From Thermoplasmatales archaeon (GTDB lineage: Archaea; Thermoplasmatota; E2; UBA202; JdFR-43), in NCBI GenBank assembly GCA_014361195.1, contig JACIWA010000003.1, positions 43,681 through 107,680 on the forward strand: a stretch of 64,000 nt of DNA. Direction: 5' to 3'. This document shows positions 20,025-57,236 of the stretch, piece by piece. The notes below the pieces were generated by a model. It searched no databases and was not told where the DNA came from. It saw nothing but the letters and a program-made list of their open reading frames with translations. The position numbers and the translations under genes are program-made. Position 1 is the stretch's first letter. Every line of letters starts with the position of its first letter.

Positions 20025-20044
20025 CTTTCCATTAATGCTTAAAA

Positions 20045-23134: not shown

Positions 23135-23523
23135 TTTTCCACTATTACTTCCGCTTCCTTTTCTTTTGCATCTATCGTGATAATATCTCCATTTTCTATA
23201 GCATCTATATCAATTCCATCAACACATACAATTCCAGCAATTATTGCCCCTGTTGCAACTATTGTTTCAGTTTCTTTATTTAATATCGCTTTTGGAGCAA
23301 CACCATTTTTTTTAAGAGCATAAATTACATACGAGCCAACAGTAGAACCCTTTCCTTGTGGAAATACAAAAATCTTATCCTTTATACATTTTCCATATAA
23401 CTGGCTATTTTTATCAATAATTACTCCTGTTTTTGTATCAACTCCTCCATAAAAGCTGAATGCTTCCTTGCTAACCAATGCCTCACCTTTCACTTTCCCC
23501 GGATATATTGTTCTCCCTTTCAT
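23131..23523 (-). CDS. Aconitase X swivel-domain protein (DUF126); putative phosphomevalonate dehydratase small subunit
   Basis: 130 aa; GxAxG-rich swivel fold; translationally coupled to the upstream AcnX catalytic subunit and adjacent to ipk. Confidence 0.7.
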   Translation of the reverse strand: MKGRTIYPGKVKGEALVSKEAFSFYGGVDTKTGVIIDKNSQLYGKCIKDKIFVFPQGKGSTVGSYVIYALKKNGVAPKAILNKETETIVATGAIIAGIVCVDGIDIDAIENGDIITIDAKEKEAEVIVEK

Positions 23524-29765: not shown

Positions 29766-29874
29766 CCCGGCGTAACTCAGACTGGTAGAGTGGCGGACTG
29801 TAGTTGCATCCCTTGGGCTATAACCCACCGCCGCGGAAATCCGCAAGTCGCTGGTTCAAATCCGGCCGCCGGGA
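29766..29874 (+). tRNA. tRNA-Tyr (anticodon GTA) with a 35-nt intron at the canonical 37/38 position
   Basis: Acceptor CCCGGCG/CGCCGGG with C1:G72 (archaeal Tyr identity pair) and discriminator A; anticodon stem GCGGA ... TCCGC split by an insertion at 29804-29838; mature loop CTGTAGA; T-arm GCTGGTTCAAATCCGGC. Confidence 0.8.
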
Positions 29875-41400: not shown

Positions 41401-41583
41401 TGCAGTAAGTGTTACTGTTACATTTGTTACATACCATCCCCAGACTGGCAATTGTGGCTCAACAGATATTGTTGTCACTGGTGGAGTGGTATCTTGTGCC
41501 AAGACTGGCAAAGCGCTCGCTAATATTGCAACTACCACAACCAAACTTCCTATTTTTCTAATATTTCTTCTATTCATTTTCAT
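38497..41583 (-). CDS. Large secreted surface (S-layer-like) glycoprotein with PGF-CTERM archaeosortase sorting signal
   Basis: Signal peptide MKMNRRNIRKIGSLVVVVAILASALPVLAQ with a purine-rich GGGGGA just upstream (the ORF extends to 41652 but the internal Met is preferred); many N-x-S/T sequons; Ig-like/CarboxypepD-reg-like beta repeats; C-terminus PGFEMIGIAIAMFAAIFLLRRRK = PGF motif + TM + basic tail. Confidence 0.8.
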   Translation of the reverse strand: MKMNRRNIRKIGSLVVVVAILASALPVLAQDTTPPVTTISVEPQLPVWGWYVTNVTVTLTAQDDESGVNATYYRINEGNWITYTAPFTLSTPGKHKIEYYSIDNEGNEEDVNTDYIPIANLTTLQVTPTTANWNETKTIEINNAEGTVYLYAPRETEPRFTAQGPGYVRWSNVLLNISGKWWIVDKVNDNKANAFAIDVKPVELVVNATPDEVNYIKVGKPGCYINIEGTVTMAGQPATQAKIKLIYPDGSNETQNVTSDGRFSFIDRNIGQKGAGKYNVTAYIGDEQYPDAFGYDIVNVKTVAPNISLLVNNAIGGFDIGKVSFEITYPEDGLQLLPGNNYNISVYKGGELYAWRNNTGTSNQTNIVFNIDGKFLNLTSLMWEAGNYILKVDVDVTGDGNWEYVGEKDFSIPSAPAVNIKVLQPLDKIMNVLAPAANKQLLRIQIFGSNMTTYGTPDALNIGANNENVTDRIKIEGDVIYSPPENAYNHLGNGTWEIYVFPTKGNGIIYINVTWPEKGTAKETINISDGGVVTVTPKAIVVDTPTNIEVEVKDRYGNPIANANVSMYYEENLYFLGDAVENATISGDGSPGKGLNGKYNFTITSKHAGKNIIVVVDYIVGVGTQYAYARIESRAAHDLNVTITPSKVLAGENTEFTVNITKGGQAYSDNFEFFILNETELQKLHEGTFTLPSPVHTTSSANSTFKYHIEEAGKYYLYVRTADKKHDNMENEPSFEVTKATVTASPSLLVKNVDKNVTVSFSVTWEEKAFNGTLRIKGINAQNVTWVNDTIEITITNGIGNVSEVNATAIGNITFEFKPSADGSEFAEANGMLRITTPTVEIIEPAEKVAFLAEENLITILVKHPLTNAGLKGLNVRIITPMGAIDVGETDSNGKLLFGIVPLETGKIQIVVEDDDAGSIDVAIGLKIIAPELEKGKEARITVTTRGGKPVANAKVTIDGKTFTTDANGEIKFTPDKEGTITIVAEKDGYYKATKTVEVKAGPKTPGFEMIGIAIAMFAAIFLLRRRK

Positions 41584-41760
41584 TCCCCCTTCGATTTTCT
41601 TTCTAAAATGCTTTTCCTTTTTTAACTTTTTCTCTTTTTCCATTTTAAACAAGTAGAATTCAATTCCTTTTTATAAAGATTTTGCTTTTTACAATACTCT
41701 GGCTAACACAAAAAGCTTATATTTAGATTTGTTTTAACATTTTGTTAGCAAAATGATAAT

Positions 41761-44615: not shown

Positions 44616-45575
44616 TTGGGGATAAAAATGGAAGAAATGTACGATGTTATAGTTGTTGGAGGTGGGCCTGCTGGTTTGACAACTGCTATCATGTGTGCAA
44701 GCAGGATGCTTAAAACGCTTGTGCTTGAAAGTGGGAAATGGGGTGGATTGCCCGCTACTCTATACCCGAGTAAAGTGATACCAAATTATCCAGGATTTCC
44801 GGAAGGTATAACCGGAATTGAACTTGTGAGGAAATGGATAAAGCAAGCAAGGGAGAGCAAATATATTACAATGGTCAGGGAAAGAGTTATTAAAATAGAG
44901 AAAGGAGGTGTTGTTAAAACAGAGGAAAATGAATATCATGGAAAGACAATTGTTATAGCAACTGGAACACGCCCGCAGGAGCTTGGCATAGAAGGAGAGA
45001 GTAAATTCAATAAAGGAGACAAAGGGGTTTATTACTATGTTACCCATAGAGAGGATTTCATAGGGAGTAAAGTTCTTGTTGTGGGAGGGGGAGATACTGC
45101 GGTTGATGCATCACTTGATTTAGTTGACCTTGCTGAAGAAATAACAATAATTCACAGGAGAGATAGATTCAGGGCTTTAGATGAAAATGTGAAGAAGATG
45201 GAGGAAAGCAAGATAAATATAATGCTAAATACAGAGCTTGAAGAAATAAGAGGAAAGGATAAAGTTGAGGAAGCCATTCTTTTCAACAACAAAACAGGAG
45301 AAAGAAAGACATTGAAAGTAGATAAAATAGTTCTTGCGGTTGGTCTAAAACCAAATACAGAAATGTTTGAAGAACTTGGAATAAAAACAGATGAAAAAGG
45401 ATATATAATAACCGATCACATGCAGCGCACAAATGTTGAAGGAGTTTTTGCGGTGGGAGATATCGTGAGGGGGGCATTCCGCCTTCTCATTGTTGGCGCA
45501 GCCCACGGAGCAATAGCATCCCAAAAGATATATGAATATGTAAGGAAGCCATATTGGGCGGGAGAAATCAGCTGA
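44616..45575 (+). CDS. Thioredoxin-reductase-like FAD/NAD(P)-binding oxidoreductase (no redox-active CxxC seen)
   Basis: 319 aa; FAD GxGxxG (VIVVGGGPAG), NAD(P) GxGxxA (VLVVGGGDTAVD), C-terminal FAVGDI; the CATC-type disulfide of true TrxR is absent. Confidence 0.7.
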   Translation: MGIKMEEMYDVIVVGGGPAGLTTAIMCASRMLKTLVLESGKWGGLPATLYPSKVIPNYPGFPEGITGIELVRKWIKQARESKYITMVRERVIKIEKGGVVKTEENEYHGKTIVIATGTRPQELGIEGESKFNKGDKGVYYYVTHREDFIGSKVLVVGGGDTAVDASLDLVDLAEEITIIHRRDRFRALDENVKKMEESKINIMLNTELEEIRGKDKVEEAILFNNKTGERKTLKVDKIVLAVGLKPNTEMFEELGIKTDEKGYIITDHMQRTNVEGVFAVGDIVRGAFRLLIVGAAHGAIASQKIYEYVRKPYWAGEIS

Positions 45576-48500
45576 ACATCCTTCTAATCCTCTTATAATA
45601 AGGTAATTCAGAGTACTTGAAATCTATCTTGAAATCTACCCCAATATCTGCGTCGCAAATTTCTATTCCTTTTTCCAAAATTCTCTCTTTCAATTCTTCA
45701 AAATATTTATTTTTTTCAAAATTTAAAAAGCATATTTTCTTCAATTTTTCTGCATTAAAATCCATGATTATTCCCAAATCAAGTATATCCTCAACTTCAA
45801 AAGGAGTAAAAAATTCGTGATTGAATTTTATTTCTGGGTCAATTTCTATTGATTTTGCAAATATTTCAATTTCTTTCTCTTTTTCTTCATAATCAATAGC
45901 ATTTTTAATGCATTCATTTCCACATATTCCGCAACCCAGACAAGCTCTGCATGCCAAGCATCTATTTGCTTCACTAACAGCGGTTTTTTTATCAAAACCT
46001 TTCTCAACTTCCTTAAATGTGCTTATCCTTTCATCAATGCTTATCTCCTCAATATTTTTTCTCTTTTCTTTTCCAAAAATTGATAAAACAACATTTCTTT
46101 TCATGATATCAACGTCTTCATAACTTGCTATCATTCTATTTATATCTCTTTCAACAGGATCAAAATCTATTTTTTTGCCATGTAAATAGGCATCTATTGC
46201 CTTTGCAACTCTTCTTCCCCATGCAACCGCTTCTATTACTATAGATGGGCCACTCACCGCATCTCCTCCCGCAAAAACTCCCGGCAGAGATGTTGTTCCA
46301 GTATTTTCATCAACATAAATCAATCCATCCTTCTTTATTTCATCTGGCAGAAATGATAGATCAGGTTGCTGACCAATTGCAGAAATAACAACATCCGCCT
46401 CAATGAAAAACTCACTGCCTTTCTTTGGAACAGGTTTTCTTCTCCCACTTTCATCTGGCTCTCCTAGCTCCATCTTCACACATTCAATTTTCTCAACGCT
46501 TTCTTTTCCAACAATTTTTAAAGGAGCGGTTAGGAAAAGAAAATTCACTCCCTCTTCTTCTGCATATCTTATTTCTTCCTCGCGAGCGGGCATTTCCTGC
46601 CTGCTCCTTCTATATAAAATTGTCACATCGCATCCAAATCTTATTGCACACCTTGCAGCATCTATTGCAACATCTCCTCCACCTATAACAACAACTTTCT
46701 TCCCTGAAATAATTGCCCTTACATTTTCTGGATATATATTTACTTCTCTTAAGAAATCAACTCCAGGTATAACTCCTTTTAAATTTTCCCCTTCTATACC
46801 CATCTTTCTGCTCTTATGAGCTCCTACTCCAATAAATATTGCATCAAAATTCTTCCTGATCTCTTCAAAAGATATATCCTTTCCTATCCTACAATTCAAC
46901 TGTATCTCAACACCCATTTCAAGAATTGCATTTATTTCTCTATTCAGCACATCTTTTGGAAGCCTATAGGGAGGAATGCCAACCGCGAGCATTCCCCCTG
47001 CAACAGGTAGTGCTTCAAAAATTTTAACTTTATACCCCATTCTTGCAAGTTCATATGCAACAGTTAAACCCGCTGGGCCTGAGCCAATTACCGCAATCTT
47101 ATATTTACTATTTTCATTTACTGGCATTTTTCCGAGATCAATTTTTCCCTTATTTTCCCACTCCCAATCCGCAACAAATCTCTTCAATAACCTTATTGAA
47201 ATTGCCCCATCAATTCCATTTCTCCTGCAAATTTCCTCACAGGGATGAGGACACACCCTTCCAAGCACACCTGGCAAAGGAAGGCGCTCTCTTATTAAAT
47301 TTATTGCCCCTTCAAAATCTCCTTCCGCAATTCTCGCCACATATCCTCGAACATCAACATGTGCAGGGCAATTAGTTTGGCAGAAAGGGCTCTCCTTCTC
47401 AAGGAAAAATGTGCTTGGTGCGCCATTTCTTCCATAAATTGCTTTCCTTGAAAAAATAGTTTGCTCCCTATCAACTGTCCTTACAGGGCATATTTCATAG
47501 CATATATTGCAGTTGTTGCAGTTTTCATTAACTCTTGTAGGATATTTTATTATTTTTACAACCCCATCCCTTATGCTTTTTACAATTGAATTGTTTGCAA
47601 TAAATATTTTTCCTTCCTTTACTAAGGCCAGAAACTCGTCATATTTGCAATCATCGTTTAAAGAGGAGAGGTGCTTCCTTATGGTATATTTATTTATTGA
47701 TGGATATTTCTCAACAATAACAACATTTTCTCCATTTTTTGATAATTCAATCGCCTTGTTTATGCCATATGCTCCTCCTCCTATTATCACATGTGCCTTC
47801 TTCAATTCGCTTATATCTTTTGTTTCGCTTATATCTAATGAAAAATCTTTTTCCTCTTTTTTTATTTCATTTTCTAATAAAAATACATATTTTCCATTTT
47901 CCTCTCTGAAAGATAATTCCCCATTTTTTATCATATCAAGCAAATATAAATATAGAATTTTTTTATCAATAAACTTCGATATTTCATCAAATCCTTTTCC
48001 TTCATTGATTAAAAATTTTATTGTTTCTATATTCATCTCATCTCTTAAAATTTCATCGCCTATTCTGTCAAACTCATAATTTGTATAAATTTCATCATAT
48101 TTATTTCCAAGGAATGTGAGCATTCTGTGCTTTCCCGCAATAATTCTTGCTCTTGGTTTAATTGAAACATTGTATGCAACTTTAAGAAGGGTATCATCTT
48201 TCAACTCCTCTTTCAATGGCCCGAGCTTTTCAATTTCTCTTGAAAATTCATCAACAATCCTTGCAAATTTTTCTCCCTCAGAAGCAGAAATCCATTCCAG
48301 CCTTAAGCGAGATGGATTAACCCCCGCAAATTTAAGTAGCTTTTTTGCAACATAAATCTTCCCTATTGTATAATAATTTCCAGTGACATAATGGCAGTCT
48401 CCAAGATGACAACCTCCAACAAGAACACCATCAACACCTTTTAGAAATGCTTTAATAATGAAAAATGGCTCAACCCTGGTTGAGCACATAACGCGAACAA

Positions 48501-48594
48501 CTCTTATTGTAGGAGGATATTGATATCTGCTCACTCCCGCCAGATCCGCGCCCGCATAACTGCACCAGTTGCAGAGTAGGCCAAGTATTTTCAA
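45568..48594 (-). CDS. Multidomain oxidoreductase: N-terminal MvhD (hydrogenase delta-subunit) domain fused to a GltD/NfnB/SudA-like FAD-NAD(P)H-FeS oxidoreductase
   Basis: 1008 aa; MvhD signature LCNWCSYAGADLAG...CSTR...GGCHLGDCHY at the N-terminus; GltD-type FeS region (FCQTNCP...GRVCPHPCEEIC) followed by KIAVIGSGPAGL and VVVIGGGDVAIDAAR nucleotide-binding motifs; C-terminal CLACRACLGCGIC cluster. Confidence 0.8.
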   Translation of the reverse strand: MKILGLLCNWCSYAGADLAGVSRYQYPPTIRVVRVMCSTRVEPFFIIKAFLKGVDGVLVGGCHLGDCHYVTGNYYTIGKIYVAKKLLKFAGVNPSRLRLEWISASEGEKFARIVDEFSREIEKLGPLKEELKDDTLLKVAYNVSIKPRARIIAGKHRMLTFLGNKYDEIYTNYEFDRIGDEILRDEMNIETIKFLINEGKGFDEISKFIDKKILYLYLLDMIKNGELSFREENGKYVFLLENEIKKEEKDFSLDISETKDISELKKAHVIIGGGAYGINKAIELSKNGENVVIVEKYPSINKYTIRKHLSSLNDDCKYDEFLALVKEGKIFIANNSIVKSIRDGVVKIIKYPTRVNENCNNCNICYEICPVRTVDREQTIFSRKAIYGRNGAPSTFFLEKESPFCQTNCPAHVDVRGYVARIAEGDFEGAINLIRERLPLPGVLGRVCPHPCEEICRRNGIDGAISIRLLKRFVADWEWENKGKIDLGKMPVNENSKYKIAVIGSGPAGLTVAYELARMGYKVKIFEALPVAGGMLAVGIPPYRLPKDVLNREINAILEMGVEIQLNCRIGKDISFEEIRKNFDAIFIGVGAHKSRKMGIEGENLKGVIPGVDFLREVNIYPENVRAIISGKKVVVIGGGDVAIDAARCAIRFGCDVTILYRRSRQEMPAREEEIRYAEEEGVNFLFLTAPLKIVGKESVEKIECVKMELGEPDESGRRKPVPKKGSEFFIEADVVISAIGQQPDLSFLPDEIKKDGLIYVDENTGTTSLPGVFAGGDAVSGPSIVIEAVAWGRRVAKAIDAYLHGKKIDFDPVERDINRMIASYEDVDIMKRNVVLSIFGKEKRKNIEEISIDERISTFKEVEKGFDKKTAVSEANRCLACRACLGCGICGNECIKNAIDYEEKEKEIEIFAKSIEIDPEIKFNHEFFTPFEVEDILDLGIIMDFNAEKLKKICFLNFEKNKYFEELKERILEKGIEICDADIGVDFKIDFKYSELPYYKRIRRMFS

Positions 48595-50264
48595 TCTATC
48601 ACCTCTATTTCCGCAACTATTTGCTCATCTCTGAAATGCTTCATATCAATTGCTTTATGTATGCAGGATGAAGAGCATGCCCCGCATCCCTTACAAGCAG
48701 CGGGTATATTTTCAGCAACTTTCTTACCATTTTTTTCAACAATTATCATTGCTCCATATGGACAAACTTCAACACACATTCCACAGCCCATGCATTTATT
48801 TTCATCAATATATGGCGTATATGGCTCAACTTTCACAAAACCATTTAACATAGGAATGGATGCCCTTCCAGCAGCTGCAAGAGCTTGAATTTTTGCTTCC
48901 TCAATTGTTGCGGGCGCCCTGCAGGAACCACACATGTAAATTCCATCTGTTGCAAAATCAACAGGGCGCAACTTTACATGGGCCTCAAAGAAAAAGCCAT
49001 CTAAACCAAGAGGAACTTTTAGCATTTGGGATATTTTTTTAGCGTCTTCGCTTTCTACAAGAGGAGTGGAAAGAATAACCAGATCCGCAGGCAATTCAAT
49101 TTTTCTCCTGAGCCCTGGATGATACAATCCAACAAATATTTTGCCATCTTTTCTTTCAATTGATGAAACTGTTGGAATGCTATCACTAACTCTTATGAAC
49201 CTAACACCTTCTTCTCTTGCCTTCCTCACATATTCTTCATATTTTACTCCATAACTCTGCAAACCCTTATGAATTATATATACATTTGAATCAGGAATCA
49301 TTTTCTTAATTATCCTTGCATTTTTCACCGAGTTCATACAGCATATCCTTGAGCAATACCTTACTCTTTCCCCTCTCCCTCCAACACATTGTATAAAAAC
49401 AAAATCATTTCCTTTTAATTTATTCTCCTTAAGCATTTTTTCAAGCTCAATCTGGGTTATTATATTTTCATATTCCTGATAATTATACATATATGTTGGC
49501 TGATATGGCTTTGCTCCAATTGCAACAATTATTGTTCCTACCTTTATTTCCTTATTTATTTTCCCTCTTATTAGCACGTTGAAATTTCCTATATAGCCAT
49601 CAATTTTTTCAACCTTGCTTGATAAATATATATTTATGTTCCTGTACTTTTTAACTTCCTCAACAGCATCTTTTAGCACTTTGCTCGCTTCTTCATCTTC
49701 TGGATATACCTTATATATATAATTCAATATTCCCCCGAGTCTATCCTCTTTTTCAACTAAATGCACCTCAATTCCCTGCTTTGCAAGGGCAACAGCAGAA
49801 GTTAATCCAGAAATGCCTCCCCCTATAATAAGGCAGGATTTTTCAACAGGTATTTTTATTTCTTCTAATGGCTCTAATAAGCGGGCTTTTGCAACTCCCA
49901 TTCTTATTAAATCCTTTGCTTTTTCTGTTGCCTTCTCCCTTTCCTTTTGATGAACCCATGAGCATTGGTCGCGAATATTAACAAATTCAAATAAAAATTT
50001 ATTCAACCCAGCCATCTCACAAGCTTTTCTGAAAAGTGGCTCATGCGTTCTTGGCGTGCAGGATGCAACAACAACCCTGTCAAGCTTATATTCCTTTATT
50101 GCATTAATTATTTCCTGCAGACCTGCATTGGAGCATGTGTACATATTTTCCTTTACATAAACCACGTCTGGCAAGCTCTTTGCATACTCACACACCACTG
50201 GTACATCTAAAAAGCCCGCTATATTTGTACCGCAATCACAAACAAAAACCCCTATTCTAGGCAT
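48591..50264 (-). CDS. Heterodisulfide reductase subunit A-like flavoprotein (HdrA/QmoB-like, with C-terminal 2x[4Fe-4S] ferredoxin domain)
   Basis: Start taken at MPRIGVFVCDCGTNIAG (8-nt overlap ATGCCTAG with the upstream gene); FAD motif IIGGGISGL; HdrA Cys signature CVGGRGERVRYCSRICC; CMGCGMCVEVCP and CKGCGACSSSC ferredoxin motifs. Confidence 0.8.
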   Translation of the reverse strand: MPRIGVFVCDCGTNIAGFLDVPVVCEYAKSLPDVVYVKENMYTCSNAGLQEIINAIKEYKLDRVVVASCTPRTHEPLFRKACEMAGLNKFLFEFVNIRDQCSWVHQKEREKATEKAKDLIRMGVAKARLLEPLEEIKIPVEKSCLIIGGGISGLTSAVALAKQGIEVHLVEKEDRLGGILNYIYKVYPEDEEASKVLKDAVEEVKKYRNINIYLSSKVEKIDGYIGNFNVLIRGKINKEIKVGTIIVAIGAKPYQPTYMYNYQEYENIITQIELEKMLKENKLKGNDFVFIQCVGGRGERVRYCSRICCMNSVKNARIIKKMIPDSNVYIIHKGLQSYGVKYEEYVRKAREEGVRFIRVSDSIPTVSSIERKDGKIFVGLYHPGLRRKIELPADLVILSTPLVESEDAKKISQMLKVPLGLDGFFFEAHVKLRPVDFATDGIYMCGSCRAPATIEEAKIQALAAAGRASIPMLNGFVKVEPYTPYIDENKCMGCGMCVEVCPYGAMIIVEKNGKKVAENIPAACKGCGACSSSCIHKAIDMKHFRDEQIVAEIEVID

Positions 50265-51531
50265 TGCACCACTCCCCCGCCCTGCATGCGGCAGCGCTTG
50301 CCTGATAAACACTTTCTGTTATATCTTTAGGGGCACAGCAACAACCTGCTGCATATATTCCTTTCCTTGTTGTTTCAACACCATTTGTTTTAATGAACCC
50401 ATGTTCATCAAGCTCTATTCCAAGGATTTTTGAAATTTCTGAATTGGTATCTGATGGCATTATAGGGGTTGCAAGAATAACCATTTCTACTTCAAGCTCT
50501 TTCACCTTCCCCTCATTTTCATCTTCATAATATATTATCAAATTTTTAGTATTTTTATCCTCAATTATTTCTCCTGGACGAGCATGTATATATGTAATTT
50601 TATAATCCTTCTCCCCTCTTTTGCTATACTCATAAAATCTTTTGCTAAAGATTCTTAAATCTGAATAAAATATGAAGGACTCAATATCATTATAATGCTC
50701 ATTTGCTAGCATTGCACTTTTTATAGATACCATACAGCAAACAGAAGAGCACCATCTGCATCTTCTAACATCTCTTGAGCCTACACATTGAATAAATGCA
50801 ATCTTTTTAGGTCTTCTTCCATCAGGAGCACATTTCAAATGTCCATGAGTTGGACCAGATGCGTTTATAAGCCTTTCATATTCAATCCAAGTATGAACAT
50901 TTGCAAATTTTCCATAGCCATATTCTTTTATATCATATGGCTCATATGCTTTTAAACCCGTAGCAACAATTATTGAAGCAACTTCAATTTCAATTGTTTT
51001 ATCTTCCTGACTATAATCTATTGCTTTTGCCTTGCATATTTTCTGACATAGCCCGCACCTATTCTTAGTTAATTTCAGGCAATATCTCTTATCAATTGTT
51101 GCTTTCCTTGGAACCGCTTGAGGAAATGGAAGAAAAATTGCCTTTCTTTTATCGATATAGTTATTATATTCATTTGGCACTTCTGTAGGACATTTTTCCA
51201 TGCAATCACCGCATCCAGTGCATTTGCTAGCATCAACATATTTTGCCCTCCTCTTCACTTTAACCTTAAAATTTCCCGCATTTCCATTAAGCCCAACAAC
51301 TTCAGAATATTCAAGTATCTCTATATTTGGATGAGATGCACATTCATTCATTTTAGGAGCAAGAATGCATATACTGCAGTCATTTGTTGACATTGTCTTA
51401 TCTAACAAAGCCATCCTCCCACCGATGCTGGGCTCCTTTTCAACTAAATAAACATGTATACCTCTATCCGCTAAATCAAGCGCCGCCTGAATGCCCGCAA
51501 CCCCTCCGCCAATAACAAGCACGCTTTTCAT
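50257..51531 (-). CDS. Heterodisulfide reductase subunit A-like flavoprotein (HdrA/QmoA-like)
   Basis: 424 aa; FAD motif VIGGGVAGIQAALDLA, DCSICILAPK, HdrA Cys signature CVGSRDVRRCRWCSSVCC, one ferredoxin-type CTGCGDCMEKCP motif. Confidence 0.8.
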   Translation of the reverse strand: MKSVLVIGGGVAGIQAALDLADRGIHVYLVEKEPSIGGRMALLDKTMSTNDCSICILAPKMNECASHPNIEILEYSEVVGLNGNAGNFKVKVKRRAKYVDASKCTGCGDCMEKCPTEVPNEYNNYIDKRKAIFLPFPQAVPRKATIDKRYCLKLTKNRCGLCQKICKAKAIDYSQEDKTIEIEVASIIVATGLKAYEPYDIKEYGYGKFANVHTWIEYERLINASGPTHGHLKCAPDGRRPKKIAFIQCVGSRDVRRCRWCSSVCCMVSIKSAMLANEHYNDIESFIFYSDLRIFSKRFYEYSKRGEKDYKITYIHARPGEIIEDKNTKNLIIYYEDENEGKVKELEVEMVILATPIMPSDTNSEISKILGIELDEHGFIKTNGVETTRKGIYAAGCCCAPKDITESVYQASAAACRAGEWCNA

Positions 51532-52586
51532 ATTGCTTCTCCAATTGCTTCAACAAAATCCTTTACTTCGAGCTCATAATTTTCATGACTCATGGTACAT
51601 AGGAAATGAATTTTGCATTTGGGACAGGTTGTTATTAGCATTTTTGATTGCTGTTCCGCTTCTAAAAGCCTTTCTTTCCTTATTTGCTCCGCCTTCCAAT
51701 CACAGGCCATCCATGCGGAAGTGGAACAACAAATTGCTTTCTCTTTTGAATGGGACATTTCTTTTATTTCATATCCCGCATTCCTTAATGCTTCTCTTGG
51801 CTCTTCATAAATTCCTAGATGGCGACCTAATCTACAGGAATCATGGAATGTGCACTCTTTATTTAAATTTCCCTCAATTTTGCTATTTTTAAGGAATTCA
51901 GAAATATGCATCATTTCAATGCCAGCTTTGTAATCATATTTAAAAGTTCTATAGCATTCAGGGCAGGAGAATATTATTTTTTCAAAATTTTTTATTTTTT
52001 CCATGTTCTTTTTCTTCATCTTTTCAAAAATCTCATTATTTCCATTCCATAATGCGTCATGCCCACAGCATGAAAATAAAACAGCGGGAGCAATGTCAAA
52101 ATAATTCAAAATTTTTATTGTGTTTTCTGCAATTGAAATTCCACTGAATCCGATATTTTCAAAAAATACATCATACAATGGCAGACAGCCAGCAAAATAA
52201 AGAATTTTTGATTTTTCATCTATTTCTACATTTTTTATGCTAAAATTTAAATCATTTTTTTCAAATAGAATGGGCAATTTTCCAAAAATATTTTCATGAG
52301 CTGGAATTCCAAAATTTTTATTTTCCATTGCAATCTCTCTCACTTTTCTTATAAAAGATAAAAAATCAACACCAGATGGACATATTTCCTCACAAATTCC
52401 ACATGTCAAACATTTCCATATATCATTTGAATAAACCAATTCATCTTCTATACCTATAAGAGATCTTTCAACAATGCTTGCAGGAGAGAATTTGCCATAA
52501 ACTCTTGTAACAGGGCATGCGGAGCTACATTTCCTGCATTCAACACAATAGTATGCCTTACTCTCATTTACTATCTCTTTAATCAT
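51528..52586 (-). CDS. HdrC/HdrB-like fusion protein (2x[4Fe-4S] ferredoxin domain + CCG cysteine-rich domains)
   Basis: Two CxxCxxCxxxCP motifs (CVECRKCSSACP, CLTCGICEEICP) followed by CCG-domain-like Cys patterns (FAGC, SCCGHD, HDSCRLGRH, CCSTS); start placed at MIKEIV (8-nt overlap with the upstream ferredoxin); a longer start at 52637 is possible. Confidence 0.7.
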   Translation of the reverse strand: MIKEIVNESKAYYCVECRKCSSACPVTRVYGKFSPASIVERSLIGIEDELVYSNDIWKCLTCGICEEICPSGVDFLSFIRKVREIAMENKNFGIPAHENIFGKLPILFEKNDLNFSIKNVEIDEKSKILYFAGCLPLYDVFFENIGFSGISIAENTIKILNYFDIAPAVLFSCCGHDALWNGNNEIFEKMKKKNMEKIKNFEKIIFSCPECYRTFKYDYKAGIEMMHISEFLKNSKIEGNLNKECTFHDSCRLGRHLGIYEEPREALRNAGYEIKEMSHSKEKAICCSTSAWMACDWKAEQIRKERLLEAEQQSKMLITTCPKCKIHFLCTMSHENYELEVKDFVEAIGEAI

Positions 52587-53049
52587 TTTTAACACCAAAT
52601 AAATGGATAATTTTTGAAAATTTTTTGAATTTTTCACTATCTGAAATCTTATCAGAAAAAATGCATTTCCTAACCTCTATTTTTTTCCCCTCATATAACT
52701 TTTCAATTGCAATTCCGATATCAAATCTTCTCTCGCAAAAAATTACTGAATTTTCCTTCTCAATAAATTCATACAAGCATTTTTCACATTCAAATTCATT
52801 TACTTCAATTTTTTCAGATAAATAAAAAAATGATTCATCTTGTATGTGATATATGGCGGAAGATGGACATGAAGCAACACATACACCACAACCCTTGCAT
52901 GAAATATCATTAACCGAGACAATTTTTTTCTCTTTATCATATGAGAAGCAATCGCATATTGATAAACATATTCTGCATTTTGAGCATTTTTCTTGATCTA
53001 TTGAGACTGGAAATTGTTTATAAAGGAGCATCGCTGAAATAATTCGCAT
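52579..53049 (-). CDS. 4Fe-4S ferredoxin-domain protein
   Basis: 156 aa; CSKCRICLSIC and CKGCGVCVASCP cluster motifs plus additional Cys pairs. Confidence 0.6.
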   Translation of the reverse strand: MRIISAMLLYKQFPVSIDQEKCSKCRICLSICDCFSYDKEKKIVSVNDISCKGCGVCVASCPSSAIYHIQDESFFYLSEKIEVNEFECEKCLYEFIEKENSVIFCERRFDIGIAIEKLYEGKKIEVRKCIFSDKISDSEKFKKFSKIIHLFGVKND

Positions 53050-53074
53050 CTCTTATTTATTATTTACTTTGACA

Positions 53075-53845
53075 TTAAATAGCATGCTTATATTTAGCAT
53101 ACTCAAAAACTGGCCCATCAATACATGAATAATAACTTCCAACAATACAATGCCCACATTTACCTATTCCACATTTCATTCTTCTCTCAACCGATAGATA
53201 GATTTTTTCTTCATTTGCTCCCCTTTTTATAGCTCTTTCTATAACTGGTTTAAACATTGCGGGAGGGCCACATATCAGAATATATTCATTTCCATCAAAG
53301 ACTATTTCATCCAATAGCTCAGTCACAAACCCTCTTCTTGCTCCTTCTTTTTCAAAAATTTCATATACTTCAGCATGTCTCTTCCATTCCTCAATTTCTT
53401 CCTGAAATAGCATATCTCGCCTGCTTCTTGCCCCAAAAAGAATTCTCAACTGATTATAAATTTTTGAATGAATTGCTTCCTTTATAAAACTTCTTAAAGG
53501 TAATATACCGAGGCCTCCAATTATTGCAACAATATCTTTTCCTTTCAATTTTTCCATCGGAAAACCATTTCCAAAAGGTCCTCTATAAAAGATATATTCA
53601 ATTTTATCTAAATTGTAAAGAAAGGAGGTTGCTCTTCCAACATTTCTTACACAAATTTCAAAAAAATTTTTTTCATATGGAGGAGAACATATTGAGATGG
53701 GAAATTCTCCAATTCCAGCAAGAGATATTTCAACAAATTGCCCAGGAATAAAATTAAAATTTTCCGCTTCAATCCTTAAAAATTTTTTATCATCTATCTT
53801 CTTATTTTCTATTACCCTCCCTTTTACTGGCATGAATGGGTTCAT
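53075..53845 (-). CDS. NfnA/PyrK/sulfhydrogenase-gamma-like FAD-NAD(P)H oxidoreductase subunit with C-terminal [2Fe-2S] motif
   Basis: 256 aa ferredoxin-reductase fold (VAIIGGLGILP, ICGPPAM) and C-terminal CGIGKCGHC...C cluster. Confidence 0.75.
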   Translation of the reverse strand: MNPFMPVKGRVIENKKIDDKKFLRIEAENFNFIPGQFVEISLAGIGEFPISICSPPYEKNFFEICVRNVGRATSFLYNLDKIEYIFYRGPFGNGFPMEKLKGKDIVAIIGGLGILPLRSFIKEAIHSKIYNQLRILFGARSRRDMLFQEEIEEWKRHAEVYEIFEKEGARRGFVTELLDEIVFDGNEYILICGPPAMFKPVIERAIKRGANEEKIYLSVERRMKCGIGKCGHCIVGSYYSCIDGPVFEYAKYKHAI

Positions 53846-53868
53846 TGGTGTAATATTTGCGGATATAT

Positions 53869-55104
53869 TTATTTTTTAACAGCGGATTTAATGGCTGGCT
53901 CTCCTCCCGCATGCCAGCTTCTCCTCGGTCTTATTTTTACTAAATGACTTACTTCTGTTATATCATCAACTATTAATGCAACCCCTTTTTCACTCCCCAT
54001 TTTCTTAATTGCCTCTCCTATACTCTCCCTCATATAAGTGGGTCTCACATTATTCATCGCATCAATATCCTCTTGTGAGGTCAAACGATGGCAAATTATT
54101 ATATCCGCATGAGAAAGCACTTCCGCGTCCATTGAACTAACTCTTTGTGTAGCCAGAATTAAGCTAAGGCCCGGCTGGCGCCCCTGGCGGAGCCATTTCC
54201 TGATGAAAACATCTTTTGTTATCTTATCTTCTTTTGGCAGAAAAATGTGAGCTTCATCTATTGCAAGCCATATGAAAGGCAGATTTTGCTGGGTTTGAGA
54301 AATTCCCATTTCTCTTTCCTCATCTCTTTTTCTTTCAATAATCCTTTCATAAAAAATAATTTCTCCTAAGATGCTTAAAATTACTTCCTTTATGCTCTCA
54401 TCATAAGCGCTTAGATCAATTATAGATATTTTTCCTTTTTTGGCTATATCCGCCAGATTTATTCCTTCTTTACCAAATATTTTCAAATTTTTTGCCATGA
54501 TAAAAAAATTTATGCAGGCCAACTTAGTTTCTTTGCTTATCTCATCATCATTCCTTATTTTCTCTATTACATCATCTATACTATATTTCCCCTCCATATC
54601 ACCTATTGCTCTTGATATCGCAACTCCTTCCGCAGAAAGAGAGGATATTCCAAAGAGCCTGCACCAGTGAAATGGCTTAAGGAAGGATGTAGCTATTAAA
54701 ATTTCTTTTGCATCTATTCCAAATCTCCTGTAATAATTCACCAGCTCAGGAGATGAAAATATTTCAATTTCCACCCCGCTCGCCTCAATTCCCCATCTCT
54801 CCAATTTTTCCTCCTCCTTCCTGTTCGGGAAAATACTGGACCAAAATATTCCTAATGTGTCCGCAACAATAAAGGAAATATTTTTCCTTATTTCTTCATC
54901 AAGAGAATAAAATTCCTCAAGGAGAACTCCTATAGTATATGATTTTCCATACCCTCTTTTCCCGCATAAAAAAATCACATGTGGCTTTGAAATGTCCAAA
55001 TACACGGGCGCCCCGAGCGAGCCATCCAGCGCATAATATCTCCCAATATTCAAAACCGCTTTTTCATTTCCTTCTTTAGCCCCCAGGATATATTTTCTAT
55101 CCAT
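53869..55104 (-). CDS. HerA/FtsK-like P-loop ATPase (DUF87 family)
   Basis: 411 aa; Walker A HVIFLCGKRGYGKSYT, Walker B IWLAIDEAHIF, arginine-finger region RQGRQPGLSLILATQRVS. Confidence 0.65.
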   Translation of the reverse strand: MDRKYILGAKEGNEKAVLNIGRYYALDGSLGAPVYLDISKPHVIFLCGKRGYGKSYTIGVLLEEFYSLDEEIRKNISFIVADTLGIFWSSIFPNRKEEEKLERWGIEASGVEIEIFSSPELVNYYRRFGIDAKEILIATSFLKPFHWCRLFGISSLSAEGVAISRAIGDMEGKYSIDDVIEKIRNDDEISKETKLACINFFIMAKNLKIFGKEGINLADIAKKGKISIIDLSAYDESIKEVILSILGEIIFYERIIERKRDEEREMGISQTQQNLPFIWLAIDEAHIFLPKEDKITKDVFIRKWLRQGRQPGLSLILATQRVSSMDAEVLSHADIIICHRLTSQEDIDAMNNVRPTYMRESIGEAIKKMGSEKGVALIVDDITEVSHLVKIRPRRSWHAGGEPAIKSAVKK

Positions 55105-55139: not shown

Positions 55140-57236
55140 ATGAATTATAGGATAATTAAGGAAGGGGGACTTAACTTAATTGAAATAGATTGCTATTCAT
55201 GTAATTATTCCTCCTCTCTTTTGGATGAAAACTGTAGGAGAGAATTGATTGAAATAATTGGAAGGGAAGGAAAAATCGATAGAATAAAATTAAATCATTA
55301 TTTTGTGAAGATAATAGAAGGAGAGGCTCTGGAAAATCTTTTTGAGATTTCAAAATTCAAGGAAGAATTGTCCTCTCTTAGAGCAAATGATTGCAATGAT
55401 TGTATTTTTAGCAAAGAAATAAAGGGTATATTGGAATTGGCTGATAAAGATCAGATAAAATCTTTTTTTAGTCTCTCAAATCTATTTTATAAACTTAAGA
55501 AACCTTTTATTTTCAGAAAAGAAGAATGCGAGGAATGTAGGAGTGAAAATTTAAGGAAGATGGAGAATATAATAAGAAAATTTGAGAAATTGAGGCATAT
55601 CTCTTATGAAGATATAAGAATTTATCTAAGGCCAATATTTTTTGATACATCAATTGAATATACTCCTCCAAATGATGCAATTTTTATTAAAAGTTATGAA
55701 ATAAAAAGAGAAAGAGGTTCAATAAAAGTTTCTCTGTATGAATTAAAAAGAAGAGCGGAGAAATTATATTTTATCATACCTCCAGAGTATAATATAAATC
55801 TGGAGGAACTTAAAATACTTATTAAAGCAAAGGAAAAGCTTGCAAAACACAGACCACCAGATACTTCATTCATGGATCCTGAAAGGACGAGGGAATATTT
55901 TTACAGGTTTGGAAAGGAAAAGATAATAGAGATAGCAAAAAATATAAATTATAAGATCAGTAGCGAAAAAATAGATTTTTTGGCGGATATATTTGCAAAA
56001 TACACATCTGGGTTTGGAATACTTGAAGATTTACTGGCGGATAAAAAAATACAGGATATTTATATAAATGCTCCAGTGAGTTACAATCCCCTGCACATAG
56101 TACTTGAGGGAGAAGAATATGTAACAAATATCTATTTTTCGGAGAATGATATCGAAGCACTTTCATCGCGCCTTAGAAGCCTTAGCGGAAGAGGTTTTTC
56201 TGAGGCAATTCCAGTGATGGATGTTGGGCTCCCTGAATATGACTCACGTATAACCGCAATTTCTCCTCCAATAACTCCAAAAGGAATAGCATTTGCAATA
56301 AGGAGACATTCAAGCGAGCTATGGACTCTCCCAAAATTTATTTCATGCAAGATGCTCTCTCCTTTAGCTGCGGGCATGCTGAGCTTCTTTATTGATGGGC
56401 AGGCGACAATTCTAATTGCGGGCTCGAGGGGGGCGGGCAAAACCTCTTTGCTATCTTCTCTAATGCTTGAGATACCGCAGAGGTATAGGATATTAACTAT
56501 AGAAGATACGCCTGAGTTGCCAGTTGATGAATTGCAGAGGTTGGGATATAAGATTCAATCTCTCGTCACTAAATCAGCTGTCAGTAACGAAGGTATAGAT
56601 GAAAAAACCGCAATTAAAACCGCTTTAAGATTGGGTGAATCAGTTATAATTCTTGGGGAAGTTCGTGGGGAGGAGGCAAAAATATTGTTTGAGGCAATGA
56701 GGATAGGGGCAGCTGGAAATTTAGTTATGGGAACAATTCATGGCTCAACTTCAAGAGATGTTTTTGATAGAATTGTTTATGATATTGGCGTGCCACCAGT
56801 TTCATTCAAAGCAACAGATGTGGTTGTAATTGCTTCACCAATAAGAGTAGGTGGTGGAATTGAAAGATTGAGAAGGGTTATACAAATATCTGAGGTTAGT
56901 AAGAAGTGGGAAAGGGAGGATGTTGATAAAATTTTTTATGATATAATGCAATATGATTACTCAAAGGATATGCTTGAGGCAACAGATATTTTTTATATGG
57001 GACAATCAGAAATAATAGGGAAAATAGCAAGAAAATGGGGAATCCGCATGGAGGATGCAATAGAAAATATAAAAATGAGGGCAAGGATGAAAGAAAAAAT
57101 TGCTGAGATTGGAAAAACAGATGCAAAATTTGTAAGGGATGCAAACAATTTTTATTGGTCTTCTCTTGAAGAAACTAAAAATTTTTATGAAATCGAGGAA
57201 AAATGGAATGAATGGTTGAAGAAACATGCAATTTGA
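55140..57236 (+). CDS. Type II/IV secretion-family ATPase (archaeal type IV pilus / archaellum assembly ATPase, FlaI/PilB-like) with long Cys-rich N-terminal extension
   Basis: 698 aa; Walker A AGSRGAGKTS, RILTIEDTPEL, Walker B/His-box VIILGEVRGEE...GTIHGS; the N-terminal ~300 aa carry CxxC-type pairs (CYSC...C, CNDC, CEEC). Confidence 0.85.
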   Translation: MNYRIIKEGGLNLIEIDCYSCNYSSSLLDENCRRELIEIIGREGKIDRIKLNHYFVKIIEGEALENLFEISKFKEELSSLRANDCNDCIFSKEIKGILELADKDQIKSFFSLSNLFYKLKKPFIFRKEECEECRSENLRKMENIIRKFEKLRHISYEDIRIYLRPIFFDTSIEYTPPNDAIFIKSYEIKRERGSIKVSLYELKRRAEKLYFIIPPEYNINLEELKILIKAKEKLAKHRPPDTSFMDPERTREYFYRFGKEKIIEIAKNINYKISSEKIDFLADIFAKYTSGFGILEDLLADKKIQDIYINAPVSYNPLHIVLEGEEYVTNIYFSENDIEALSSRLRSLSGRGFSEAIPVMDVGLPEYDSRITAISPPITPKGIAFAIRRHSSELWTLPKFISCKMLSPLAAGMLSFFIDGQATILIAGSRGAGKTSLLSSLMLEIPQRYRILTIEDTPELPVDELQRLGYKIQSLVTKSAVSNEGIDEKTAIKTALRLGESVIILGEVRGEEAKILFEAMRIGAAGNLVMGTIHGSTSRDVFDRIVYDIGVPPVSFKATDVVVIASPIRVGGGIERLRRVIQISEVSKKWEREDVDKIFYDIMQYDYSKDMLEATDIFYMGQSEIIGKIARKWGIRMEDAIENIKMRARMKEKIAEIGKTDAKFVRDANNFYWSSLEETKNFYEIEEKWNEWLKKHAI

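Follow-up and report, generated by a model that had tools for sequence, protein, structure and literature searches.

An HdrABC/HdrL-type operon of a Thermoplasmatales archaeon: a candidate NAD(P)H-linked electron-bifurcating complex on paired HdrA proteins

Complexes that combine heterodisulfide reductase (Hdr) proteins with a GltD/NfnB-like module have been on the genome record since 2009; they are common in ANME-1 (anaerobic methanotrophic archaea) and abundant in a syntrophic sulfate reducer. The name HdrL was given in 2009 to HdrA/GltD fusions of D. autotrophicum (HdrL1–3, each with an MvhD; PMC2702500), the proteins of an HdrABC/FeS/MvhD/HdrL cluster of S. fumaroxidans (Sfum_0819–0824) were found to be abundant with sulfate in a proteomic study of 2018 (PMC5947623), and HdrA9–11 of ANME-1, which carry an NfnB-like insertion, were described together with tandem HdrA heterodimers in 2022 (PMC9012536). 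A 'type III HdrA', for which NAD+ specificity was inferred, was described in 2025 (PMC12054007). The present analysis concerns a six-gene operon at positions 45568–53845 of a 64 kb stretch of contig JACIWA010000003.1 from a Thermoplasmatales archaeon (the whole stretch is called the window below). An original prediction, made from the letters of this stretch, had proposed an undescribed bifurcating complex joining Hdr-like and Nfn-like modules, on the grounds that Hdr was known only with MvhADG, Flx or QmoC; the four reports above contradict these grounds. The reading preferred here, with a probability of roughly 0.55, is that the operon specifies a soluble iron–sulfur flavoprotein complex of several subunits with an asymmetric HdrA heterodimer at its core, in which the electrons of NAD(P)H would be bifurcated (or confurcated) between ferredoxin and a disulfide or other acceptor.

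The six open reading frames (ORFs) run in one direction on the minus strand and are packed tightly, as originally described, with four overlaps of 4–8 nt and one gap. Measured from the starts that homologues support, the gene for the HdrC–HdrB fusion begins at Met18 (52586) and overlaps the upstream stop by 8 nt, that for the 424-amino-acid (aa) HdrA overlaps the gene upstream of it by 4 nt, that for the second HdrA begins at Met17 (50264) with an 8 nt overlap, and the 1008-aa gene begins with a TTG at 48594, the start also given for the NCBI protein, with a 4 nt overlap. The gap separates genes 1 and 2 and measures 25 nt if the longest ORF is taken, but 43 nt with the Met7 start that NCBI and homologues suggest for gene 2; Met7, at 53031, is probably the true start. 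The longest ORFs of genes 3 and 5 are 369 aa (reaching 52637) and 573 aa (reaching 50312), and the product of gene 5 is called the 573-aa HdrA here. Domains were assigned with Pfam and NCBIfam searches, together with PDB sequence scores, Foldseek, hhalign, BLASTP and AlphaFold2 (AF2) models where these are named. The assigned features, in the order of transcription, are as follows.

53863..53871, minus strand: candidate TATA-like element TAAATATAT, 18–26 nt 5' of the gene 1 ATG, overlapping the stop codon of a HerA-like gene
53075..53845, minus strand: gene 1, 256 aa, FAD/NAD(P)H/[2Fe-2S] flavoprotein (FAD, flavin adenine dinucleotide; Pfam NAD_binding_1 and DHODB_Fe-S_bind)
52579..53049, minus strand: gene 2, 156 aa, predicted adaptor with a 2x[4Fe-4S] domain and a shortened MvhD-like domain (Pfam, NCBIfam, hhalign)
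51528..52586, minus strand: gene 3, 352 aa from Met18, HdrC–HdrB fusion, HdrD/TfrB-like (Pfam CCG twice and Fer4_8)
50257..51531, minus strand: gene 4, 424 aa, HdrA core with thioredoxin-reductase-like FAD domain, HA4 motif and inserted ferredoxin domain (alignment to M. wolfeii HdrA)
48591..50264, minus strand: gene 5, 557 aa from Met17, HdrA with N-terminal cluster domain, FAD domain, HA4 motif and C-terminal ferredoxin domain (alignment to M. wolfeii HdrA)
48220..48594, minus strand: gene 6 residues 1–125, MvhD/FlpD [2Fe-2S] adaptor (Pfam FlpD, 167 bits over residues 3–125; 5odc_D, 167 bits)
47809..48219, minus strand: gene 6 residues 126–262, helical linker with a winged-helix-like element (AF2 helices 172–223, beta-hairpin 227–240, predicted local distance difference test, pLDDT, above 90)
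47395..47808, minus strand: gene 6 residues 263–400, relic of the first half of the HdrA FAD domain (GxGxxG...E) and ferredoxin motif A (BLASTP and alignment)
46165..47394, minus strand: gene 6 residues 401–810, GltD/NfnB-fold FAD and NADP(H) module with two [4Fe-4S] clusters (PDB scores, Foldseek)
45568..46164, minus strand: gene 6 residues 811–1008, segment resembling the NfnB N-terminus, ferredoxin motif B and a short HdrA C-terminal remnant (alignments)

At the superfamily level the six family assignments of the original prediction hold in the Pfam and NCBIfam profile searches; the refinements are given with each protein below. The TAAATATAT element upstream of gene 1, read by eye from the sequence, is a possible archaeal TATA-like element. 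No transmembrane segments are found in any of the six subunits, and the complex is probably soluble. The window was scanned with Pfam for 30 of its 67 ORFs of at least 110 aa, namely the larger ones; among these, in agreement with the original prediction, there is no hydrogenase or formate dehydrogenase, nor an mcr or apr gene, and no Complex1_51K or NuoE-type protein occurs in the cluster or among the scanned ORFs. The window bears archaeal signs (a probably intron-containing tRNA, PolD DP2, aIF5A and aTrm56) and has a G+C content of about 34%. In a homologue search the 1008-aa protein is 100% identical to a protein of a metagenome-assembled genome (MAG) of 'Thermoplasmatales archaeon' in NCBI that is annotated merely as 'hydrogenase iron-sulfur subunit'.

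As in the HdrABC/HdrL clusters of Desulfobacterota, HdrA flavoproteins, a CCG protein, MvhD and an HdrA–GltD protein are encoded together here without a hydrogenase. The order HdrCB–HdrA–HdrA–MvhD–GltD is also that of Syntrophobacteraceae and Desulfobacterales loci, and an alignment of the 1008-aa protein with deltaproteobacterial proteins of 1126–1138 aa spans the GltD module as well as the ferredoxin motifs, Lys471 and all cluster cysteines being invariant. Unlike HdrL and type III HdrA, the 1008-aa protein has no complete HdrA FAD domain and has lost HA4 and Lys409; unlike HdrL, it has MvhD fused at its N-terminus, there are no selenocysteines here, and a FlxA-like flavoprotein and a ferredoxin–MvhD-like (Fd–MvhD-like) adaptor are added to the operon. 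The host also differs from the HdrL hosts in being a thermophilic archaeon, and no dsr genes are present in the window. With HdrA9–11 of ANME-1 and type III HdrA the operon shares a GltD/NfnB-like domain inside the inserted ferredoxin domain of an HdrA, an HdrD-like fusion and tandem complementary HdrA proteins. ANME-like loci show the same HdrCB–HdrA–HdrA–MvhD–GltD order at 41–53% identity, but have an FrhB-like F420 donor and separate MvhD and GltD proteins where a FlxA-like donor and an MvhD–GltD fusion are found here. The studies of HdrA9–11 and of type III HdrA both dealt only with methane-metabolizing archaea. The latter inferred NAD+, whereas the nucleotide-binding motif here points to NADPH. 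Judged from domain content and gene order, the operon is of the HdrABC/HdrL ('type III HdrA') kind and constitutes a new architectural and taxonomic variant of it, not an unrecognized combination. The traits that set it apart are the fusion of MvhD to a truncated HdrA::GltD protein, the FlxA/HydG-like donor, the Fd–MvhD-like adaptor and the thermophilic Thermoplasmatota host.

The presence of two HdrA-like flavoproteins, as first proposed, is borne out by the NCBIfam HdrA2 model (510 bits for the 424-aa and 550 bits for the 573-aa HdrA), the cut-off of which (1100 bits) is missed by both. Residues 4–419 of the 424-aa HdrA align to residues 146–562 of M. wolfeii HdrA (5ODC_A; 458 bits) and keep the DCSIC motif (Cys194/Cys197), Glu356, Lys409 and the equivalents of Cys386, Cys399, Cys403 and Cys404, while neither the N-terminal domain nor the C-terminal ferredoxin domain is present. 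In the 573-aa HdrA, residues 18–251 align to HdrA residues 4–237 and residues 255–570 to HdrA residues 318–647 (491 bits against 5ODC_A), leaving the inserted ferredoxin domain (HdrA 238–317) without a counterpart; Glu356 and Lys409 are kept, Cys194 and Cys197 are missing ('PEDEEAS' in place of 'TNDCSIC') and there is no conserved cysteine between Cys117 and Cys309. The HA4 cysteines of both proteins, as well as Cys52 and Cys55 of the 424-aa HdrA, are kept in 11 of 11 homologues. Each protein thus has an HdrA FAD domain, an HA4 motif and Glu356/Lys409, whereas the HdrABC set of N-terminal cluster, Cys197, inserted ferredoxin domain and C-terminal ferredoxin domain is present only in the two jointly. 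This pattern of presence and absence is complementary in the way expected of an asymmetric heterodimer and suggests that the 573-aa and 424-aa HdrA proteins form one; the same complementarity of N-terminal domain and Cys197 led Chadwick et al. to infer tandem HdrA heterodimers in ANME (PMC9012536).

Both HdrA proteins are also predicted to carry a tail of a ferredoxin domain and MvhD. For the 573-aa HdrA the ferredoxin domain lies in cis and the N-terminus of the 1008-aa protein supplies MvhD, and for the 424-aa HdrA the whole tail would be provided in trans by the 156-aa adaptor. Beside each MvhD-type adaptor stands a pyridine-nucleotide flavoprotein, the GltD module of the 1008-aa protein in one case and the 256-aa protein in the other. 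The operon resembles MvhADG–HdrABC (M. wolfeii, 5ODC) and HdrA2B2C2 of M. acetivorans in its HdrA FAD, its HA4 motif, an N-terminal cluster with Cys197 supplied in trans, ferredoxin domains both inserted and at the C-terminus, its MvhD, its HdrC dicluster and its pair of CCG motifs; the succession of C-terminal ferredoxin domain and MvhD matches HdrA2. It departs from these systems in that the HdrA domains are split over two polypeptides, the donors are pyridine nucleotides, no hydrogenase or formate dehydrogenase is found among the scanned ORFs and the equivalog cut-offs are missed. The sulfur-oxidizing Hdr (sHdr) was considered and rejected as an identification: both HdrA proteins score only 87–158 bits against the sHdr HdrA structure 6tjr compared with 458–491 bits against methanogen HdrA, and there is only one CCG protein.

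The 1008-aa protein had been described as an MvhD domain fused to a GltD/NfnB/SudA-like module, and both domains are indeed present; missing from that description were a truncated HdrA and a split ferredoxin domain. The MvhD cysteines (Cys8, Cys11, Cys37, Cys62 and Cys67) are kept in 10 of 10 homologues. Residues 266–387 align to residues 2–133 of the 424-aa HdrA (BLASTP, E = 2e-6), with Gly272, Glu295 and the motif A cysteines (Cys359, Cys362, Cys365 and Cys369) invariant in the family alignment, and residues 853–936, which include motif B (Cys885, Cys888, Cys891 and Cys895), align by BLASTP to residues 126–203 of the same HdrA. Of the HdrA core no more than the first ~200 residues can be recognized, and the CVGSRD/CSxxCC sequence (HA4), Lys409 and the C-terminal FAD half are absent. 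Motifs A and B flank the GltD module and are colinear with the deltaproteobacterial HdrL-type proteins, with Asgard fusions and with the 424-aa HdrA. By these alignments the protein consists of MvhD and a truncated HdrA, with the GltD module inserted into, and splitting, the HdrA ferredoxin domain. The AF2 model is confident (pLDDT 87, predicted TM-score 0.88).

The linker at residues 126–262 gave two matches among 1.8 billion cluster representatives in an exhaustive HMMER search, which shows that this segment evolves fast. One homologue gave a weak match to Pfam 'Sulfolobus_pRN'.

The GltD module scores highest against subunits of the Stn/NfnABC type (9n5u_A, 473 bits; 9bov_A, 443 bits; 8oh5_C, 383 bits) and lower against NfnB and NfnI-L (4ylf_B, 356 bits; 4ylf_B/5jca_L, 356–360 bits). 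Foldseek gives the same ranking, in which NfnB, NfnI-L and GltD come after S. ovata StnC and the NfnABC A subunits from T. sibiricus and C. saccharolyticus; the identity to NfnB/NfnI-L in a structure-based alignment is 44% and the Foldseek TM-score, normalized to target length, is 0.78–0.81. Lys471, in the sequence 'LKRF' where NfnB has 'LERF', occupies the position of StnC Lys170 and is invariant in 58 of 58 relatives. Residues 4–43 of NfnB align to residues 844–883 of the 1008-aa protein (including Cys879 and Cys882), that is, after the flavin domains, an arrangement shared with StnABC and NfnABC (8OH5, 9BOV, 9N5U). The module is accordingly assigned to the Stn/NfnABC type, with a predicted lysine ligand at the proximal cluster rather than the glutamate of NfnB, so that of the 'Nfn-like module' first proposed the GltD/NfnB fold, the NADPH site and the two [4Fe-4S] clusters stand and the NfnB-type ligand does not. 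The FAD of StnC has been shown experimentally to be a non-bifurcating NADPH input (PMC10482914). Unlike Stn and NfnABC, the operon encodes neither a bifurcating module of the NuoE/NuoF (HydBC) type nor a NuoG/Fdh-like domain, and its GltD module sits in an HdrA-derived protein. In common with NfnAB (NfnSL) it has an FAD/NADPH subunit of GltD fold that carries two [4Fe-4S] clusters, together with a protein of the PyrK superfamily in the operon, but it differs in the lysine in place of glutamate at the proximal cluster, in the HydG/AsrB subtype of the small subunit and in not being a stand-alone two-subunit enzyme. A plain glutamate synthase was rejected, since GltB is lacking and the module forms part of a protein derived from HdrA.

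The second Rossmann motif of the module is GGGDVA (Gly638-Gly-Gly640-Asp-Val-Ala643) followed by Tyr661-Arg-Arg-Ser-Arg665, as in the NADPH-binding NfnB and StnC, and this combination of a GxGxxA and an RR motif indicates NADPH as the likely nucleotide, the StnABC/NfnABC motif being of the same type. Seven of 58 relatives, all distant and comprising 910-aa proteins and some fusions of 1290–1675 aa, have (C/T/M)LES, which looks NADH-like, in place of YRRS(R/E) at 661–665; the variation between LE and RR suggests that NADH-specific and NADPH-specific lineages coexist in one family. Antisense ORFs inside the GltD region of gene 6, such as 46403–46819 on the plus strand, seem to be kept in six to nine related loci. 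Their conservation is most simply a by-product of strongly conserved coding on the minus strand and is no evidence that they are genes.

The HdrC/HdrB-like CCG protein encoded by gene 3 is confirmed, Pfam CCG matching twice, and has an HdrC-type dicluster part (two [4Fe-4S] motifs) and two complete CCG motifs, of the patterns Cys151-x38-CC-x33-CxxC and Cys268-x34-CC-x33-CxxC, which are kept in nine of nine homologues. The best NCBIfam match is TfrB with 122 bits (cut-off 385), and HdrC reaches 52 bits (cut-off 160). The protein is the putative site at which a disulfide or other acceptor would be reduced.

Gene 1 encodes a protein first called NfnA/PyrK-like, of which the PyrK superfamily holds and NfnA does not. 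It scores 190 bits against 9nez_C (SHI gamma) compared with 55 and 50 bits against NfnA/NfnS (4ylf_A and 5jca_S), and in NCBIfam it reaches 238 bits with PRK08345, 214 with ShyC and 197 with AsrB but only 81 with the NfnA-type PRK06222 (cut-off 220). Its cysteines Cys225, Cys230, Cys233 and Cys241 are kept in seven of seven homologues. By these scores it belongs to the sulfhydrogenase-gamma/AsrB subtype (HydG/AsrB, FlxA-like) of the superfamily, and its product is a putative hydride-donor module. The gene is found in seven of 11 related loci, and adjoins the gene for the Fd–MvhD adaptor and not that for the GltD protein.

The 156-aa product of gene 2, originally taken for a ferredoxin, does contain a 2x[4Fe-4S] domain but is not a plain ferredoxin. 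Residues 13–70 match positions 570–629 of the HdrA2 model and are thus of the HdrA C-terminal ferredoxin domain type, and the gene 2 family matches the MvhD profile in hhalign (95.4% probability, E = 1.8e-8), with Cys88, Cys91, Cys105 and Cys129 of the C-terminal half invariant in the family. The ferredoxin part is 38% identical to that of a 210-aa Fd–FlpD protein encoded at the equivalent position in ANME-like loci. The protein is best described as a ferredoxin with a shortened MvhD-like domain, a predicted adaptor. FlxABCD consists of an NAD(P)H/FAD/[2Fe-2S] flavoprotein, Fe–S proteins and an MvhD-like protein encoded next to hdrABC. For the FlxABCD–HdrABC system of D. vulgaris, Ramos et al. 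in 2015 reportedly proposed bifurcation or confurcation among NADH, ferredoxin and a protein disulfide. Compared by description only, the present operon is similar in having a HydG/AsrB-type flavoprotein, an Fd–MvhD-like adaptor and Hdr genes, and dissimilar in having two HdrA proteins, an added GltD-type NADPH module and fused HdrB and HdrC, with DsrC not in evidence here.

In the preferred reading, NADPH would be oxidized at the GltD FAD, acting as a non-bifurcating input, and the electrons would pass through the two [4Fe-4S] clusters and the split ferredoxin domain to the MvhD [2Fe-2S] cluster and on through the C-terminal ferredoxin domain of the 573-aa HdrA to the HdrA FAD, where they would be bifurcated. 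The high-potential branch would lead from this FAD via HA4, the HdrC part and the CCG clusters to the disulfide or other acceptor. The low-potential branch would lead via the N-terminal cluster, composed of the N-terminal domain of the 573-aa HdrA and Cys55 of the 424-aa HdrA, and via the inserted ferredoxin domain of the 424-aa HdrA to ferredoxin. A second path might connect NAD(P)H through the 256-aa flavoprotein and the 156-aa adaptor to the 424-aa HdrA as an exchangeable hydride input or output, for which the FrhB/F420 module of the ANME-like relatives would be the substitute. The reverse, confurcating direction is also possible and would suit a fermenter making reduced ferredoxin and NAD(P)H. 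A pseudo-symmetric two-donor arrangement of the heterodimer, with NADPH (through the Stn-type GltD module and MvhD) and a second hydride carrier (through the Fd–MvhD adaptor) coupled at one bifurcating HdrA flavin to ferredoxin and a thiol/disulfide, is conceivable but unlikely, as is the accompanying assignment of the second carrier to NAD(P)H via the FlxA-like subunit here and to F420H2 via FrhB in the ANME relatives. If it were true, the complex would be an HdrA-based transhydrogenase/disulfide reductase that solves the Nfn/Stn problem in a third and independent way, one that would be widespread among Desulfobacterota and anaerobic archaea.

A bifurcating heterodimer is favored by the domain, motif and gene-order evidence given here and also by the related HdrABC/HdrL cluster, the products of which are expressed and abundant in S. 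fumaroxidans under conditions of sulfate reduction (PMC5947623). Several points weigh against it. The search of the literature found no purification, assay or structure of a complex of Hdr with a GltD/NfnB-type module, which is the sense in which the complex can still be called undescribed, the combination itself being known from genomes. Glu356 and Lys409 correlate with bifurcation and no more, and bifurcation is not known for HdrA-like proteins such as QmoAB and the sHdr HdrA. A heterodimer as modelled would have one complete low-potential branch, leaving the second FAD without a clear role, and in full-length type III HdrA the GltD module lies on the branch by which electrons usually leave for ferredoxin, so that the direction of flow through GltD is uncertain. 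On the acceptor side, the best curated match of the CCG protein, TfrB, is far under its cut-off, and no DsrC, mcr or coenzyme M/B gene is present among the window ORFs scanned. On the donor side, the gene for the 256-aa flavoprotein is absent from three related clusters (L002, L007 and L013). Finally, the AF2 model of the 156-aa protein, from a seven-sequence alignment, is poor (pLDDT 51) and its Foldseek matches are at chance level; because of this the MvhD-like assignment comes from hhalign and the alignment to the Fd–FlpD protein, that is, solely from profile comparison.

The operon could instead encode a non-bifurcating oxidoreductase, in which electrons from NAD(P)H would run downhill through the Fe–S chain and the HdrA flavins to the CCG site, where a disulfide, a fumarate-like compound or another acceptor would be reduced, with no coupling to ferredoxin. 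Qmo-type HdrA-like proteins are usually drawn as non-bifurcating, and the split into two HdrA proteins resembles, as originally described, the QmoA/QmoB architecture of a short and a longer HdrA-like protein with an MvhD-type domain following the longer one. No QmoA or QmoB model of NCBIfam appeared among the matches. The likeness to QmoABC does not extend to a membrane subunit, which is lacking here; the QmoC model matches only the HdrC-like dicluster (40 bits, cut-off 300) and there is no aprBA nearby. A downhill route would also agree with a CCG protein that scores best against TfrB and LdhH-type proteins, not HdrB, and with a GltD module of the non-bifurcating Stn type. It is nevertheless rather unlikely, since the HdrA proteins are much closer to the bifurcating methanogen HdrA than to the non-bifurcating sHdr protein 6tjr (458–491 and 87–158 bits, as above), since Glu356 and Lys409 are kept, as are an N-terminal cluster completed by Cys197 and an inserted ferredoxin domain that gives a complete low-potential exit, and since so elaborate a chain of cofactors is needless for a downhill reaction. 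Another possibility, in line with the original prediction, is that an NfnAB-like pair, in which the 256-aa protein would correspond to NfnA and the GltD module to an NfnB with its own bifurcating FAD, has been grafted onto Hdr to give a transhydrogenase with two bifurcation sites. Two such sites were raised for HdrA–NfnB fusions by Chadwick et al. (PMC9012536), the resemblance of the module to NfnB/NfnI-L is considerable (44% identity, 356–360 bits) and a PyrK-superfamily FAD/[2Fe-2S] protein is encoded in the same operon. This pairing is made improbable by Lys471, which in all 58 relatives is as in StnC and the NfnABC A subunit, the StnC FAD being non-bifurcating (PMC10482914), and by the 256-aa protein, which is of SHI gamma rather than NfnA/NfnS type (190 compared with 50–55 bits; PRK06222 81 bits, below the cut-off of 220), is absent from L002, L007 and L013, is replaced by FrhB in the ANME-like loci and is encoded beside the Fd–MvhD adaptor and not the GltD gene.

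The acceptor side allows two further alternatives. The complex might be an HdrA-based transhydrogenase that couples NADPH (at GltD) and NADH or F420H2 (at the FlxA-like subunit or FrhB) with ferredoxin at the HdrA flavin, the CCG protein being accessory or regulatory and not a reductase of a bulk disulfide. There are two distinct hydride-carrier modules, each with an MvhD-type adaptor, no thiol-carrier gene is found in the conserved neighbourhood, and a flavoprotein of thioredoxin reductase (TrxR) fold, maybe a ferredoxin:NADP reductase, is conserved next door. Set against this, no partner is associated more constantly across phyla than the HdrC/B fusion, which has both CCG motifs, the second donor module is dispensable in some clusters and there is no precedent for an Hdr without a substrate at the CCG site, so that a transhydrogenase with an idle CCG protein is hard to credit. 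A genuine reductase of the heterodisulfide of coenzymes M and B (CoM-S-S-CoB) in methane or alkane metabolism is highly improbable. It is true that the closest characterized relatives of the HdrA proteins are methanogenic and that the core cluster is common in ANME-1 and Methanosarcinales MAGs, but the host MAG is of Thermoplasmatales type and belongs to the thermophilic JdFR-43/HyVt-like groups, the scanned window ORFs contain no mcr or related gene, the NCBIfam Hdr equivalog cut-offs are widely missed (HdrA2, 550 against 1100 bits; HdrC, 52 against 160 bits) and the core is also present in Desulfobacterota and Asgard archaea.

A bifurcating complex on an HdrA heterodimer leads to four testable predictions: the heterodimer itself, a non-bifurcating, NADPH-specific and lysine-ligated GltD input, an Fd–MvhD adaptor that serves the second HdrA, and exchangeable donors. 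The operon is a practical candidate for heterologous expression and cryo-EM (electron cryo-microscopy), being a compact six-gene unit with no selenocysteine and with MvhD already fused to the NADPH module; because the lineages are of hydrothermal type, its proteins are probably thermostable. If the predictions were confirmed, they would clarify how the NADPH, ferredoxin and thiol pools are balanced in fermentative and in methane- or sulfur-cycling anaerobes.

The conservation of gene order proposed as a check was found. The whole order recurs in about ten species representatives of Thermoplasmatota (JdFR-43, HyVt-387 and Guaymas MAGs, from thermophilic Thermoprofundales-like subgroups), and the nine loci matched over full length show 46–71% identity in the middle part of the 1008-aa protein. 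The four-gene core HdrCB–HdrA–HdrA–MvhD–(relic HdrA::GltD) is found in Methanophagales/ANME-1, Methanosarcinales MAGs, Methanolliviera, Asgard MAGs, Desulfobacterales and Syntrophobacteraceae. Recurrence of the order in about ten independent species, and of the core across phyla, is more than chance would give; a chance adjacency or an assembly chimera was rejected in view of the ~10 independent MAGs. In six loci of ANME/Methanosarcinales type, the two upstream genes encode an FrhB-like protein and the 210-aa Fd–FlpD adaptor, and MvhD (252 aa) is encoded separately from the GltD protein (855 aa). FrhB and an Fd–MvhD protein thus take the place of genes 1 and 2, and the donor module therefore appears to be exchangeable while the adaptor and the core are constant. 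Hdr is not mentioned in a Thermoprofundales genomics paper.

Three loci from Desulfobacterota (L040, L045 and L049) have tandem Hdr sets, HdrA–HdrA–MvhD followed by HdrCB–HdrA–HdrA–MvhD–GltD, and the tblastn matches of the short HdrA are split in two. Such a split would fit in-frame selenocysteine codons of the kind that D. autotrophicum is reported to have.

The genes that flank the operon are as follows.

44616..45575, plus strand: 319-aa TrxR-fold flavoprotein, convergent with the operon, with an 8 nt overlap at the 3' end of gene 6
53869-55104, minus strand: HerA/DUF87-type ATPase, on the strand of the operon and ending 23 nt upstream of it
55140-57236, plus strand: T2SSE/VirB11-type ATPase, diverging from the HerA-like gene
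57226-59064, plus strand: 612-aa protein with no Pfam match, diverging from the HerA-like gene

The 319-aa protein matches Pfam Pyr_redox_2 with 180 bits and NCBIfam TRX_reduct with 256 bits (cut-off 343). It has a single cysteine and hence no redox-active CxxC, scores equally against structures of TrxR and of TrxR-like ferredoxin:NADP reductases, and is possibly a TrxR-type ferredoxin:NADP reductase. Its gene lies beside the cluster in seven related loci at 83–95% identity, which is higher than for the Hdr genes, and in five relatives an FrhB-like gene follows beyond it. The HerA-like ATPase was considered as a seventh member of the operon and is treated as unrelated, since it lies beside the cluster only in L005 and L012. 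Together with the T2SSE/VirB11-type and 612-aa genes, it could form a secretion, pilus or defence module.

Elsewhere in the window, the minus strand at 38497–41652 encodes a 1051-aa protein that is probably a surface or secreted protein and whose sole recognizable domain is a C-terminal CarboxypepD_reg-like domain. A series of isoprenoid genes, typical of the modified mevalonate pathway of archaea, occupies 18079–24686 on the same strand and includes the AcnX large and small subunits, a polyprenyl synthetase, an amino-acid-kinase-family protein (probably isopentenyl phosphate kinase) and an FMN-dependent (flavin mononucleotide-dependent) dehydrogenase-family protein (IDI2-like), with an MFS transporter and a SAICAR synthetase interspersed. 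At 29766–29874 on the plus strand, Rfam identifies a 109 nt tRNA (52.7 bits) that was missed by ARAGORN in its bacterial setting and is probably an intron-containing archaeal tRNA.

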